From: a virus
Taxonomy: Duplodnaviria; Caudoviricetes
IMG/VR virus record: IMGVR_UViG_3300025502_000082
Location: 1 to 34,796 of that record
Length of the DNA: 34,796 nucleotides
Strand: one strand, 5' to 3'
The position numbers and the translations under genes are program-made. The stretch's first letter is position 1. Each line of letters begins with the position of its first letter. Below the pieces are notes generated by a model that was not told the origin of the DNA, did no database searches, and worked only from the letters and a program-made list of their open reading frames with translations. Positions 17,216 to 26,545 of this stretch are shown in pieces.

Positions 17216-17478
17216 AGTGGCTAATTATTCCGCTTGTACTGCTCACCGGCTGCACCCGCACCCTGTACGTTGATCGGCCCATTGAGCACCGCGTAGAAGT
17301 CTCTCGCCCATGCCTTGAGTCCAGCGACATACCAGCCCAGCCAGCCTATGCCCTTGCACAGCTACAGCAGGGTGTGAGTGACGGCGATATAGTCCTAGCC
17401 ATGCGACAAGAGATTGCCGAGCGAACGGACTATACCGGGGTGCTGGTGGGCCTGCTTGGCGCTTGCACTCAGCGTTAA
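17212..17478 (+). CDS. Outer-membrane spanin lipoprotein (Rz1-like)
   Basis: Signal peptide with lipobox LLTGC; V.V..PC...P..P; C-terminal Cys. Confidence 0.82.
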   Translation: MKWLIIPLVLLTGCTRTLYVDRPIEHRVEVSRPCLESSDIPAQPAYALAQLQQGVSDGDIVLAMRQEIAERTDYTGVLVGLLGACTQR

Positions 17479-17669
17479 GAGGCTTTGGCTTTTGCCTCAA
17501 GCCAATCGTCGATGTCAGCTTTCCGCCAGCCAACACAGCGCGCAGAAAAACGGATTTTCCGGGGGAAGGTTGGGTCAGTTTCGTGCATGACGTGCAGCTT
17601 GGTGCGGCCTATTCCAATATATGCACAGGCATCTTTTGGTCGCATGATTGCCGGGGTGATCGCGCTCAT
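17475..17669 (-). CDS. alpA: AlpA-family excisionase/recombination directionality factor
   Basis: IMRPKDAC.YIGIGRT.L......FP..I.......GW...DID.WL; GAGG RBS. Confidence 0.88.
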   Translation of the reverse strand: MSAITPAIMRPKDACAYIGIGRTKLHVMHETDPTFPRKIRFSARCVGWRKADIDDWLEAKAKAS

Positions 17670-17729
17670 TGTTGGTGCCTCTTTCAAGTTGTTGTGTGCC
17701 AATAATACCAATAGCGTTCGTTGTTGTTA

Positions 17730-22798: not shown

Positions 22799-22827
22799 AG
22801 ATTAGACCTGCAAGCAAACAGTGTCAA
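22799..22827 (-). promoter_or_regulatory. Leftward early sigma70 promoter (pL-like)
   Basis: TTGACA-17 nt-TAATCT. Confidence 0.75.
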
Positions 22828-22914
22828 GCCGTAGAATGATAAATAAAAATAGTTATTTAAACGTGTAGCATAATGATACATGTACATAGAAGCGCATAGA
22901 CACTGGCAAATAGT

Positions 22915-22943
22915 TTGCAAAAGGCGTTGACGGCAGCTATTAT
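22915..22943 (+). promoter_or_regulatory. Rightward early sigma70 promoter (pR-like)
   Basis: TTGCAA-17 nt-TATTAT; a second TTGACG at 22927. Confidence 0.6.
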
Positions 22944-22951
22944 ATTGATAA

Positions 22952-22964
22952 TGATGCGGTATCA
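22952..22964. promoter_or_regulatory. Candidate operator palindrome
   Basis: TGATGCGGTATCA, an imperfect palindrome between pR and the RBS of the Cro-like gene. Confidence 0.4.
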
Positions 22965-22980
22965 CTTAAAGGATAAACAT

Positions 22981-23157
22981 ATGTTAGATCGAGTAAGACG
23001 GATGCTAAACGAGCGCAAGGGGCAGTGGCGATTGATAGCCAAGCAATGCGATGTTAGCTATTCATGGCTGACCAAGCTTGCCCAGGGCGTAAACCAGAAT
23101 CCGACCATCAATAAGCTTGAGCGTCTGGATTCATACTTACGGGACACAGCGATATGA
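22981..23157 (+). CDS. Cro-like XRE HTH regulator
   Basis: W..IA.QCDVSYSWL.KLA.G...NPTI.KLE.L; AAGGA RBS. Confidence 0.85.
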   Translation: MLDRVRRMLNERKGQWRLIAKQCDVSYSWLTKLAQGVNQNPTINKLERLDSYLRDTAI

Positions 23158-23366
23158 GCCAAAAAGACAGAATACTCGCACACCTCAAGGCAGGCCGATC
23201 TATCACGCCAATCATGGCGCTGACTAAGTTTGGATGCTTTAGGCTTGCGGCGCGGATAGATGAAATACGACACCAAGGCTTTGATGTGGTTACTTCAATG
23301 GTGGCCGATGGTGATCGCAGGTATGCCAAGTACAAGCTGATTAGTGGAGCAAAGCCTAATGCGTAG
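23154..23366 (+). CDS. Winged-helix protein (HTH_39-like)
   Basis: SQ..RIL.HL..G.SIT...A...FGCFRLAARI.E.R..G. Confidence 0.85.
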   Translation: MSQKDRILAHLKAGRSITPIMALTKFGCFRLAARIDEIRHQGFDVVTSMVADGDRRYAKYKLISGAKPNA

Positions 23367-23368
23367 AC

Positions 23369-23452
23369 AAAAAAAAGCCCCTTCCGTTGCCGGTTGGGGC
23401 TTGCCTCTGGGCGAGGGCTTTAGTAGTCTTGCTGTGCGAGCAACAAGAACAG
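23369..23452 (-). ncRNA. Short antisense RNA (oop-like position)
   Basis: Minus-strand promoter TTGCGG(23486-81)-17-TAATAT(23463-58); terminator AAGCCCC..CCG-GCAA-CGG..GGGGCTT plus T-tract. Confidence 0.6.
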
Positions 23453-23750
23453 GAAGTATATTAGCGAAAGCTAACACCATCCGCAACCCTCCTGTTCTTA
23501 TTGCCGCCCAGTCGGGCCTGGCGAAATCGTGCTGTCTCATTGTGCAGCCGCCCTCGAAAGCAAGTAACTGCAATCCGACCTTTAAGGGACGGGATAAACA
23601 GCGTAATTGTGACCTAAGTGTTAGGGTGAGGTTTTGGCAGCCTGAATATAACTGTTTGCTGATTACTGGATTGCACGGGACATTGGATAAAGCCAGTAGG
23701 CTGACAGGGGTCACAAACAGTCCCTATATGTCACCTATTGTCTGAATAAA
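23370..23750 (+). ncRNA. Structured non-coding element upstream of mini-initiator (candidate origin/primer RNA)
   Basis: Multiple long complementary segments (see findings); no credible ORF. Confidence 0.5.
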
Positions 23751-23758
23751 GGGGATTT

Positions 23759-24043
23759 ATGGCAGAGCTAAAGCTAGTCCAGCAGCAAATAATAGGACTG
23801 AACCAAGACGCTGTAGACGAATGGTCAGAGTACAGGCAGGAAAAGAAAAAGCCGCTATCTGCTCTGGCTATGAAGAAGGTAATTAAGTTTTTACTAAAGT
23901 ACGATGAAGGGCATCAGCAGGCGCTAGTCGATGCGGCAATCATGAACGACTGGCAAGGCTTGCATGATATAGAGATAAAAAAGCAAACTAGCAGGGAATC
24001 CACTCTGCACGATGATCTAAACGATACTTCATGGGCGAGGTAG
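23759..24043 (+). CDS. Stand-alone C-terminal domain of a phage replication initiator
   Basis: EW.EYR...KKPLS....K.......Q..LVD.AI.N.WQGL and terminal D.SW; GGGGA RBS. Confidence 0.7.
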   Translation: MAELKLVQQQIIGLNQDAVDEWSEYRQEKKKPLSALAMKKVIKFLLKYDEGHQQALVDAAIMNDWQGLHDIEIKKQTSRESTLHDDLNDTSWAR

Positions 24044-24045
24044 TT

Positions 24046-24225
24046 ATGCGAACAAATCACGAAAGAGGCGAGGCTAGATACAACGCGAGACTGACCACAG
24101 AAAAGGTTATTGAGATCCGCGAGAACAGGTATGGGTGGTCAGCTAAGCGCCAGGCAGAGCACTACGGCGTACATCACAACACTATCCACAGGGTTAGGCA
24201 CTTTGAAGCATGGAGCCATGTATGA
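24046..24225 (+). CDS. Small HTH protein (HNH-endonuclease C-terminal-type DNA-binding domain)
   Basis: RGE....ARLT.EKV.EIR......A..YGV...TI..V....W.HV. Confidence 0.75.
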   Translation: MRTNHERGEARYNARLTTEKVIEIRENRYGWSAKRQAEHYGVHHNTIHRVRHFEAWSHV

Positions 24226-25589
24226 GTGCGTATCAAAAATTCCTACGAGATAAGCAGTTCATGACTCAAACAAGCGGCTTTGATGCTGATTTATCTGAGT
24301 ACCCTTTGTTCGATTACCAGATAGATATAGTCCGATGGTCCTGCCATCGAGGGAAGGCGGCTGTTTTTGCTGACACGGGCATGGGTAAAACGATCATGCA
24401 GCTTGCATGGGCCGACCAGGTTGCAAGGCATACCGGTAACCCTGTATTGATCTTGGCCCCACTGGCCGTATCAGACCAGACGATTGCAGAGGGCGCAAAG
24501 TTTGGCATCCATGTTGATAGATACCGTTTTGCTGACGTTTTTGGTCCTCATATTTATGTGACCAATTACGAGCAGCTGCACAACGTCAATGCAGACCAGT
24601 TCGATGGTGTTGTGTTGGACGAGTCCAGCATTTTGAAGGGAATGCAGGGCAAGGTTCGCAAGCAAGTCACAAGCATGTTTTCGGCTACGCCATACCGGCT
24701 TAGCTGCACGGCCACACCTTCTCCCAATGATTTCATGGAGCTTGGCACTCAGTCCGAGTTCTTGGGGATTATGTCTCAGGTTGAAATGCTGGCGATGTTT
24801 TTCATCCATGACGGTAGCGACACAAGCAAATGGAGATTGAAGGGCCACGGCAGGCGCAAGTTCTTCGAGTGGCTGGCGACTTGGGCGGTATTCATCAGCA
24901 AGCCTTCTGACCTTGGGTATTCCGATGATGGGCATGAATTGCCGGAGCTGATATTTCACGAGCACGTCATTGATTCAGGTATCACAGAAGGATTATTCGC
25001 GCCGGTTGCGACTGGGCTGCTAGACAGGAACCGAGCAAGAAAAGACACGGTTGATGCGCGTGTTGAGCAGGCTTCGATAATCGCCAATGGGATCAATGGG
25101 CAGGTTCTTGTCTGGTGTCACCTGAACAACGAAAGCGAGAAATTATCAGATGCGATTGATGGGGCTGTAGAGGTGACAGGTTCCGACCCCGCTGCACACA
25201 AGTCGGCAACCATGCTGGGCTTTGCGAGTGGTGATGTTCCGGTTCTTGTGAGCAAGCCAAAAATCGCAGGGTTTGGCATGAACTGGCAGAACTGCAATCA
25301 CGTTGTCTTTGTTGGCCTTTCCGACTCATGGGAGCAGTTCTATCAAGCGGTGCGTAGATGTTGGCGCTACGGGCAAACCAAGCCCGTACATGTTCACATT
25401 GTTAGCGCCGATGTTGAGGGTGGAGTGCTTGCGAACATTAAACGCAAAGAGTCGCAGCATAAAGAATTGAAGAAAGAAATGATCGCCATTATGCGCGACA
25501 AGACGCTGGCCCAGCTTGGCAGGGCACAACAAGAAAAAACCCAATACCAGCCAGAATTGAGCATGGAGATACCATCATGGATTCAGTAA
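24222..25589 (+). CDS. SNF2-like superfamily 2 helicase/ATPase
   Basis: LFDYQ, DTGMGKT, LDESS, TATPSPND, GFGMNWQ, QAVRRCWRYGQ. Confidence 0.9.
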   Translation: MSAYQKFLRDKQFMTQTSGFDADLSEYPLFDYQIDIVRWSCHRGKAAVFADTGMGKTIMQLAWADQVARHTGNPVLILAPLAVSDQTIAEGAKFGIHVDRYRFADVFGPHIYVTNYEQLHNVNADQFDGVVLDESSILKGMQGKVRKQVTSMFSATPYRLSCTATPSPNDFMELGTQSEFLGIMSQVEMLAMFFIHDGSDTSKWRLKGHGRRKFFEWLATWAVFISKPSDLGYSDDGHELPELIFHEHVIDSGITEGLFAPVATGLLDRNRARKDTVDARVEQASIIANGINGQVLVWCHLNNESEKLSDAIDGAVEVTGSDPAAHKSATMLGFASGDVPVLVSKPKIAGFGMNWQNCNHVVFVGLSDSWEQFYQAVRRCWRYGQTKPVHVHIVSADVEGGVLANIKRKESQHKELKKEMIAIMRDKTLAQLGRAQQEKTQYQPELSMEIPSWIQ

Positions 25590-26545
25590 TCGACCAAGTC
25601 ATCACCAACAACTACGCGATTTATAACGGAGACTCGGTTGAAGTTGTCGCAGGGCTTCCTGATAACAGCGTGGACTTCCAGATATATAGCCCACCATTCG
25701 CCAGCCTGTATACCTACAGCAACAGCGACAGGGACATGGGGAATGTCAAAGACGATAAAGAGTTCTTCGAGCATTTCAGGTTCTTGGTGGCAGATCTGTA
25801 TCGCAGCTTGAAGCCAGGGCGACTCATGGCTGTTCACTGTATGAATCTGCCGACAAGTAAACAGAATGACGGGTTTATCGGCATTAAAGATTTCAGGGGC
25901 GATTTAATCCGATCATTTCAGGACGCCGGTTTTATCTATCACTCAGAAGTCTGCATATGGAAAGACCCAGTGATCGCCATGCAGCGCACAAAAGCGCTCG
26001 GGTTGCTTCATAAGCAAGTGAAAAAAGACTCAACCATGAGCCGCCAGGGTATACCTGATTATTTGGTGGTGATGCGTAAGCCTGGGGATAATGAGAATCC
26101 CGTATCTGGCGAGTTCACGCATTACGTTGGCGACAACCCACCTATGGGGTTTAAAGGCCACCAATACAGCGATGGCCGGTGGTATTTCGTTCCCGGCGCT
26201 CAGGGAACAAGCATTGACGTTTGGCAGCAATACGCAAGCCCTATATGGGACGATATAAACCAGACCAACACCCTGAATTTTCGAGAAGGCAGGGACAGCG
26301 ATGATGAGCGCCACATTTGCCCGTTACAGCTTGACGTTATAGAGCGCGCCATGCAGCTCTGGACAAAGAAAGGCGATACAGTTCTGACGCCTTTCCTTGG
26401 AATAGGCAGCGAGGCTTACATGGCTGTAAAGATGGGGAGGAAGGCTATCGGTTGTGAGTTAAAGGCATCGTACTTTGACCTTGCCCGCAGAAACATGCTG
26501 AGCGCAGAGGAATCCCAATATGACATTTTTGGCGGTGCAGCATGA
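25577..26545 (+). CDS. Beta-class N4-C/N6-A DNA methyltransferase
   Basis: Motif IV-like YSPPF N-terminal; HICPLQ; motif I TPFLGIGSE; G.ELK.SY. Confidence 0.88.
   Translation: MDSVIDQVITNNYAIYNGDSVEVVAGLPDNSVDFQIYSPPFASLYTYSNSDRDMGNVKDDKEFFEHFRFLVADLYRSLKPGRLMAVHCMNLPTSKQNDGFIGIKDFRGDLIRSFQDAGFIYHSEVCIWKDPVIAMQRTKALGLLHKQVKKDSTMSRQGIPDYLVVMRKPGDNENPVSGEFTHYVGDNPPMGFKGHQYSDGRWYFVPGAQGTSIDVWQQYASPIWDDINQTNTLNFREGRDSDDERHICPLQLDVIERAMQLWTKKGDTVLTPFLGIGSEAYMAVKMGRKAIGCELKASYFDLARRNMLSAEESQYDIFGGAA

Follow-up and report, generated by a model that had tools for sequence, protein, structure and literature searches.

A conserved, pseudoknotted non-coding element ahead of a truncated replication initiator in a tailed phage: a candidate RNA-primed origin

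The window, i.e., the whole stretch of DNA that was analysed (34,796 nt), is an entire virus record of a tailed phage with siphovirus-type structural genes as identified in a PHROG scan. The genome is probably complete because the record carries a 186-nt terminal repeat with a single mismatch. The gene order around the locus is Cro-like repressor, winged helix-turn-helix (wHTH) gene, non-coding element, 94-aa ORF, HTH gene and SNF2-type helicase; a methyltransferase and then ninB, ninG and Q-like genes follow further 3' in the same region (Table 1). The helicase gene starts 180 nt 3' of the 94-aa ORF. The HTH_39 wHTH gene is also present 5' of many sister elements, and in loci L163-L182 it directly precedes the mini-initiator. 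When the 65 ORFs of the genome were compared with the PHROGs no P, DnaC, DnaB, full initiator, primase or polymerase was found, in line with the preliminary description of this DNA, which had recognised no P, DnaC, DnaB or primase gene. Its further claim that no iteron array is recognisable was confirmed as well: positions 22800-24300 hold only short repeat families of 2-3 copies. Integrase, CI and reverse transcriptase were equally absent from the 65 ORFs, and RecE-like and RecT-like proteins are encoded (PHROG/Pfam scan); neither their genes nor the SNF2-type helicase figure in the preliminary description. In this genome without integrase or CI an excisionase-like gene is located at 17478-17711 on the minus strand; possibly the phage descended from a temperate ancestor. 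GC skew was discarded as an origin marker, since its turn near 22-23 kb coincides with a switch of the coding strand and is uninformative.

Table 1. Features of the locus, with positions in the window
Feature	Position	Strand	Evidence or remark
Cro-like repressor gene, 58 aa	22981..23157	+	PHROG 9425, E 1.1e-10
Small wHTH gene (HTH_39), 70 aa	23154..23366	+	Pfam PF14090, E 1.3e-16
Predicted ~85-nt antisense RNA, oop/RNA I-like	23367..23451	-	inferred from promoter and terminator positions
Intrinsic-terminator-like hairpin and U-run, would end the predicted antisense RNA	23369..23402	-	sequence and fold
Promoter predicted for the large RNA (sigma70 type, spacer of 17 nt)	23401..23429	+	positional conservation
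Structured non-coding element as a whole (5' module and type-1 core); predicted RNA of ~310 nt	23435..23745	+	
P1, long 5' stem (23440-54 with 23490-504)	23440..23504	+	14/15 bp
Predicted antisense promoter, within the P1 loop	23458..23486	-	positional conservation
P2 hairpin (23531-35/23544-48) and pseudoknot 1 (loop 23540-43 with 23560-63)	23531..23563	+	two-sided change in 5/5 and 4/4 pairs; 88% of cells paired
P3, core-closing helix (23569-77 with 23667-75)	23569..23675	+	42 distinct helices in 51 sequences
Pseudoknot 2 (loop 23585-90 of hairpin 23579-81/23591-93 with 3' end 23720-25)	23585..23725	+	95.6% of cells paired; 4/6 pairs compensatory
P4 (23599-602 with 23658-61); the internal loop next to it is conserved	23599..23661	+	invariant, partly an artefact of the search pattern
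Pseudoknot 3 (23607-15 with 23708-16)	23607..23716	+	6/6 pairs compensatory; 29 distinct helices
P6 hairpin (23629-43) and pseudoknot 4 (loop 23637-39 with 23653-55)	23629..23655	+	high mutual-information pairs; 3/3 pairs compensatory, 72% paired
Conserved 3' motif, then A-rich stretch, abutting the RBS	23730..23747	+	candidate RNA-to-DNA transition site
94-aa ORF, the C-terminal domain of an O-like initiator as a stand-alone gene	23759..24043	+	PHROG 678
SNF2-type SF2 helicase gene	24222..25589	+	PHROG and Pfam matches
DNA methyltransferase gene	25577-26545		after the helicase gene

The 94-aa ORF has its own RBS at 23748-55, and the frames upstream of it are closed. At E 1.5e-10 the protein aligns with positions 222-309 of PHROG 678 ('replication initiation O-like', 346 positions), i.e., it does resemble the C-terminal domain of an initiator, as had been noticed from the DNA alone. 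Homologues with a normal N-terminal wHTH had been named as an argument against the proposal. Close homologues have none: all 25 near-length homologues lack it in a search which admitted only proteins of 51-165 aa. Longer relatives such as P0026 and L008 possess N-terminal domains. A profile search free of length limits returned 1184 proteins at E 0.001, stand-alone and full-length both, with top matches mostly of 90-150 aa. HTH_36 is missing in all four mini-initiator records, a weak observation as the records are only 38-74% complete. AlphaFold predicts a three-helix bundle with a short acidic/Trp tail (pLDDT 75.8). Fold searches with this model gave no clear match; the weak ones were DnaT (E 5.7) and DnaD (Z 3.5, rmsd 3.5, 59 aligned). 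A Pfam match to AvrPtoB below the cut-off (E 2.4e-4) was treated as chance. A common short acidic/Trp tail, in the window encoded at 23990-24043, ends three unrelated initiator C-terminal domains, stand-alone as well as full-length. Locus L032 has a different tail, followed by a P-like loader gene. Possibly the acidic/Trp tail takes the place of a loader gene.

Does the DNA between the wHTH gene and this truncated initiator encode a protein? In the window a 133-aa ORF spans the region, and so does a 130-aa ORF in L005. However, the two are offset by a 1-nt frameshift within the conserved core, a stop-free plus-strand frame exists in only 2 of 51 cores, and the anchor spacings spread across all three frames (21/16/14). 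Neither Pfam nor the PHROGs match the ORF. Codon-type conservation of the ORF at 23344-23745, which the preliminary description had named as an argument against its own proposal, is not what the relatives display. The claim of a structured non-coding upstream region is borne out by these closed frames together with the covariation described below.

The helices which had been read from the letters are present in the window: the long 5' stem P1 (14 of 15 bp), the GAAA hairpin at 23461, a short hairpin at 23613, 23569-76 with 23668-75 (8/8) and 23607-14 with 23709-16 (8/8), which crosses the others. The last had been left as either a pseudoknot or an alternative fold; it coincides with the conserved pseudoknot 3. 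One helix fared differently. Pairing of 23595-601 with 23652-58 is possible in the window (7/7, including one T-G), yet this register is kept in only 10 of 51 members, and the family forms P4 and pseudoknot 4 instead. Altogether the type-1 core comprises four pseudoknots, in two of which an internal loop pairs with a strand in the last 40 nt. Taken by itself, the window sequence folds only weakly beyond chance (z -1.79 for a 392-nt region; 5 of 100 shuffles were as stable); the case rests on the relatives.

Relatives were assembled in several ways. Protein-driven scans yielded L005, L006 and 28 metagenome loci. A three-seed profile added seven new metagenome loci 5' of a homologue of the 94-aa protein without recourse to any DNA pattern. 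A pattern scan yielded 79 viral loci, of which four chance matches within genes were removed (L051, L061, L080, L106). The genome collection contributed two pattern matches; L123 is real (a phage-like contig in a bin, its host label being doubtful) and L124 is a chance match. Beyond the pattern scan the search for relatives relied on sequence profiles, which may overlook weak structural homologues. From 83 candidates five with cut ends were left out, and the remaining 78 gave 51 sequences at a limit of 95% identity; L081 was used in place of its twin L074 and the end of L057 was extended.

In these 51 sequences 86.3% of 2136 cells are paired; shuffles reach 69.8%, and slid controls do not exceed 47.6%. 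Lack of covariation would have spoken against the structure; as a matter of fact 33 of 43 base pairs show two-sided, compensatory changes among the 51 non-redundant relatives. None of 500 shuffles reached any of the fold measures. As relatedness inflates the shuffle control, more weight belongs to the slid control and to a swap test that needs no alignment. In the swap test, a strand's own partner was the better one in 2411 of 2476 cases for P3, in 1834 of 2158 for pseudoknot 2, and in 2166 of 2303 for pseudoknot 3. Mutual information recovered the helices without a prior model; RNAalifold on a MAFFT alignment recovered only 12 pairs. Seven invariant pairs, which are partly set by the search pattern, count as no evidence. 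For P1, differing complementary sequences are visible by eye in L005, L021, L029, L031, L032, L035, L038 and L041.

A search of Rfam with the window and 20 related loci returned no match at gathering score and five weak ones below threshold; in particular, introns, ribozymes, ROOL/GOLLD and retron ncRNAs did not match. The element had no blastn match in 50,697 phage records, and two family members had none, or two short chance matches, in PLSDB. The window contains one copy according to an imperfect covariance model. No description of the type-1 RNA was found in the literature searched. It may sit among the unnamed candidates of PMC10690425; the motif is absent from the searchable part of the supplements of that paper. 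At the level of comparative sequence analysis the element is confirmed as a real, conserved, uncatalogued non-coding structure with four pseudoknots.

The 5' module which precedes the type-1 core carries two opposed promoter-like sites. In test windows picked post hoc, and in loci that are related to each other, a sense site was present at the expected place in 31 of 47 loci (shuffles: mean 13.7, maximum 18) and an antisense site in 39 of 47 (mean 11.7, maximum 17); the wrong-strand controls gave 9 and 13. The window's own sense site is weak and below the threshold of a simple promoter/terminator scanner, which detected no site of the element there. The minus-strand hairpin at the 5' edge has a weak Rfam match to ctRNA, far under threshold (E 0.19). 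The predicted antisense RNA would overlap the large RNA by about 16 nt in the window; in helicase-type loci the predicted overlap is longer. The 5' promoter module is absent in a few loci (L033, L034, L082), so that the core can also be part of an operon transcript. Directly 5' of the core, 9-mers which we take to be DnaA-box-like are seen twice each in L049 and L066, and such 9-mers are seen also in the upstream region of L145. GNRA/cUNCGg tetraloops number 47 on the sense strand and 9 on the antisense strand (shuffles: mean 25.6, maximum 35). The promoter-like sites and the sense-strand tetraloops favour an RNA over a single-stranded DNA as the acting molecule.

Type 1 is one of several bodies. 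A shorter sister RNA, type 2, has the same 5' module, a different body and apparent covariation by eye; it is located in L021 (600-920), L031 (105-450), L032 (175-500), L035 (195-560) and L122. In four loci it precedes a mini-initiator and in L122 a full O and P. L021 and L122 share a stretch of 1023 nt at 98.5% identity, within which the type-2 RNA lies, and then diverge; beyond the shared stretch L021 encodes a mini-initiator and L122 a complete initiator of 308 aa together with a P-like loader. Either the RNA acts independently of origin function, or L122 has recently regained a complete module. A third body, type 5, of about 420 nt is positioned 5' of a family of 122-150-aa mini-initiators (L166-L186, e.g., L177 1483-1951). 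The type-5 profile matches the 5' module of the window (E 5e-5), and the type-5 body ends in an AT-rich tract. A further RNA variant is seen in L163 (1080-1480). Long non-coding gaps are present 5' of related helicases (L145 2214-2998, L147 2714-2990, L128 3381-3995), including the cultured Pseudomonas phage PS-1. The type-1 RNA has no match in the gaps of L145, L147 and L128, which are candidates for further RNA types. L030 (300-385) and L035 (1650-1710) retain no more of the type-1 element than its final ~35 nt, as a local hairpin and RBS before a mini-initiator.

Which genes does the element travel with? Among the 75 type-1 copies found by pattern, the largest group, 48, is situated ahead of an SF2 helicase. 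Recombination genes follow 11 copies and mini-initiators 7, including 3 copies identical to the window; the other 9 stand before further genes or at contig ends. The gene after the SF2 helicase is usually primase-like in its zinc-finger region only. In cultured phages with a related helicase (L127, L129) the type-1 RNA has no match; a RepL-type gene is present there, as is a complete primase of 300-330 aa. Toprim_3 was found in both cultured controls (L127, L128) and in none of three RNA-bearing records. In helicase-type phages the type-1 RNA occupies the place which RepL and the full primase hold in cultured relatives. PS-1 has a 614-nt gap at the corresponding place and a full primase. Helicase loci without type-1 RNA and without an adjacent primase account for 9 of 25, with other non-coding gaps there. 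The type-1 core also precedes stand-alone C-terminal domains of three unrelated initiator families: the window type, the L043 type (PHROG 15768, positions 130-191 of 228), and the L055/L123 type (PHROG 1032, positions 191-252 of 281).

The association with truncated initiators was examined in a two-by-two comparison of loci from protein-driven scans with these three initiator families. From 112 loci 91 distinct ones were retained, 38 with stand-alone and 48 with full-length initiator genes; five cut or intermediate ones were set aside. A type-1, -2 or -5 RNA is located upstream of 27 of 38 stand-alone genes and of none of 48 full-length genes. With at least 1000 nt of upstream sequence the figure is 19 of 22 for stand-alone genes. 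The three without a profile match are L160, L178 and L163, the last of which has another variant by eye. A neutral promoter-plus-start pattern was present in 15 of 22 stand-alone and in 6 of 43 full-length loci. The comparison is partly circular as the profiles stem from stand-alone loci, and it is confounded by kinship as the full-length loci mostly derive from distant phages. Its informative parts are therefore the zero and the neutral pattern. The original proposal that a structured non-coding element replaces the DNA-binding half of the initiator gains from this comparison, because across relatives the element goes with the loss of that half (19/22 vs 0/48). Judged from the sequences, the comparisons show that the element exchanges with origin-binding and priming domains across phages, and it probably does duty for the part of phage initiators that binds the origin.

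We lean towards the view that the element is an RNA-primed phage origin similar to those of ColE1 and MRB plasmids and that the initiator has for this reason been reduced to its C-terminal domain. In favour are the covarying non-coding fold, its exchange with initiator halves and with RepL and primase, the opposed promoter-like sites, and a genome in which the scans found no other initiator, loader, primase or polymerase. Speaking against it are the full O and P beside the sister RNA of L122, the 20 of 75 type-1 copies ahead of neither helicase nor mini-initiator, the 9 of 25 helicase loci that have neither this RNA nor an adjacent primase, the gap and full primase of PS-1, the loci that lack the promoter module, the short predicted antisense overlap, the absence of sequence homology to ColE1, and the closeness of the element's end to an RBS, as in a translational leader. 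Host RNA polymerase would start at the predicted sense promoter, and a small antisense RNA from the opposed predicted promoter would tune the large RNA. The folded RNA would then keep its own 3' part on the template near the conserved 3' motif. Alternatively, the two pseudoknots with 3' strands in the last 40 nt might grip the displaced non-template DNA strand. The R-loop would open the DNA and supply a primer for a host polymerase, and the 94-aa protein would help to load the host helicase on the opened DNA, possibly via its conserved tail. The initiator would have kept only its C-terminal domain because the RNA serves as the origin. A wider picture is possible, if rather doubtful: in many aquatic phages origin recognition and priming could have passed to interchangeable pseudoknotted RNAs, whose loops grip the displaced strand or which cut themselves to yield the primer, and initiators and primases could have shrunk repeatedly to helicase-coupling stubs.

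We consider it unlikely, yet worth serious attention, that the element is a cis-regulatory leader, either a translational switch or a put-like antiterminator, of an early replication/recombination operon, with the origin elsewhere or replication started by recombination. In most loci the element ends 10-20 nt from the RBS and the next start codon is only ~10-30 nt away; nothing like a terminator is seen 3' of the core. Such a leader is also suggested by the differing operons which the element heads, recombination genes in 11 of 75 copies among them, by L122 with its sister RNA next to full O and P, and by the RecE- and RecT-like proteins and the SF2 helicase of the window. It leaves unexplained, however, why full-length initiators of the same C-terminal families have no such RNAs (0/48), and why RepL and the catalytic domain of the primase are lost where the RNA stands. 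Further, the stretch that separates RNA and initiator readily takes up unrelated genes (L005, L006, L033, L038, L041), and the RBS is outside the conserved helices.

The exact replacement of the DNA-binding half of O and of RepL would suit an origin-recognition scaffold, i.e., a ribonucleoprotein formed with the mini-initiator or the zinc-finger-only protein that marks the DNA in cis while host primase makes the primer; the invariant internal-loop residues could be a protein site. This appears quite improbable to us. One and the same core occurs together with no fewer than four small proteins of different origin, namely three initiator domains and a zinc finger, which speaks against a single interface between RNA and protein, and the loss of the primase catalytic domain suits a primer better. 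An independent element, a ribozyme or a phage-host conflict RNA which merely favours a position in the early operon, has even less in its favour. Four pseudoknots and invariant single-stranded residues are ribozyme-like, and a few divergent type-1 cores are situated among structural/terminase genes far from replication genes (L096, L109, L121). The strong association with truncated replication genes argues against it, as do the lack of an Rfam ribozyme or intron match and the single copy that the imperfect model finds in the window.

Covariation cannot separate RNA from single-stranded DNA (PMC5737381), and the structure might in principle act as the latter, as a primosome-assembly or primase site. 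G-T cells outnumber A-C cells only modestly outside three conserved G-U columns (95 vs 60). We regard this as highly improbable in view of the conserved promoter-like site at the 5' edge and the bias of the tetraloops to the sense strand. Finally, that the 133-aa ORF represents the 5' half of the initiator gene, decayed or not recognised as such, is refuted by the frameshift against L005, the covariation of the fold and the closed frames.

New in this work are three truncated-initiator families, the two-by-two test, the opposed predicted promoters and the interchangeable RNA bodies. If the element is an origin, it adds to the RNA-started replicons a phage family whose RNA is much more heavily knotted, and it would explain phage genomes which seemingly lack an initiator. 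Nature would then have carried out swap experiments, L021 versus L122, and RepL/primase versus RNA. A fragment of 700 bp is a directly testable mini-replicon candidate. Even if the element is regulatory, a large uncatalogued fold with four pseudoknots is suited to structure determination.

How does the element compare with known systems? The PAGEV motif is included in Rfam, and the element has no Rfam match. To ARRPOF and GEBRO it is similar as an orphan structured motif tied to replication regions (223-349 nt); those motifs, however, are from plasmids and other phyla (PMC5737381). With lambda O/P and oop it shares the gene place after a Cro-like gene, a self-terminating antisense RNA, here a predicted one, at a gene junction, similar in size to the 77 nt of lambda, and the C-terminal domain, which is homologous to O-like initiators (PMC3349717). 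It differs from lambda in that the N-terminal DNA-binding domain, iterons and P are lacking and that a predicted sense promoter and a large RNA are present (PMC3349717). T4 oriF and oriG are likewise phage origins primed by a promoter-driven transcript, and an SF2 helicase, UvsW, acts on the R-loop (PMC3016281). T4, in contrast, has its own replisome and MotA-dependent promoters, and the accessible text of that source describes no pseudoknotted RNA family (PMC3016281).

The closest resemblance is in the mode of action. In 2010 ColE1 and the MRB plasmids were, according to the accessible text of PMC3035462, the only described RNA-started replicons without a Rep protein, and the opposed promoter-like sites would mirror their RNA II and RNA I (PMC5043065, PMC3035462). 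MRB replicons (pB1067/pES213), which the element as predicted resembles in the following points, are aquatic and bacterial, have opposite-strand RNAs, no iterons, and a small RNA of two hairpins and ~70-85 nt which ends at an intrinsic terminator (PMC3035462). Unlike here, MRB RNA II covers the whole of RNA I, and the replicons are Vibrionaceae plasmids without any piece of a Rep protein, whereas the window is a tailed-phage genome (PMC3035462). For MRB and PAGEV no blastn match of useful length in PLSDB and no Rfam match were obtained; pB1067 was compared by its description only (PMC3035462, PMC5737381). ColE1 is alike in that a long, structured non-coding region behind a promoter takes the place of an iteron-binding initiator and in that a small antisense RNA opposes the large RNA as RNA I does, promoter and antisense RNA being predicted ones here (PMC5043065). 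ColE1 RNA I is complementary to the first ~110 nt of RNA II (PMC5043065), and the predicted overlap in the window is far below that. The short 3' motif with its A-run resembles L125 (ColE1) 1188-1198 by eye. Homology to ColE1 was nevertheless rejected, as these likenesses by eye are unsupported by the profile search: nhmmer with the 51-sequence profile gave no match to ColE1 at E 10. The element measures ~310 nt, with the predicted promoter ~310 nt from the 3' motif, versus ~550 nt in ColE1; it has four pseudoknots, belongs to a phage and not a plasmid, and is accompanied by a truncated initiator protein. What makes the polymerase form the hybrid in ColE1 was still called speculative in 2016 (PMC5043065). 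The element would work in the manner of ColE1 and MRB plasmids and yet be a member of neither family, as homology, size or replicon type fail; if this function holds, plasmid-style RNA-primed origins would be extended to phages.
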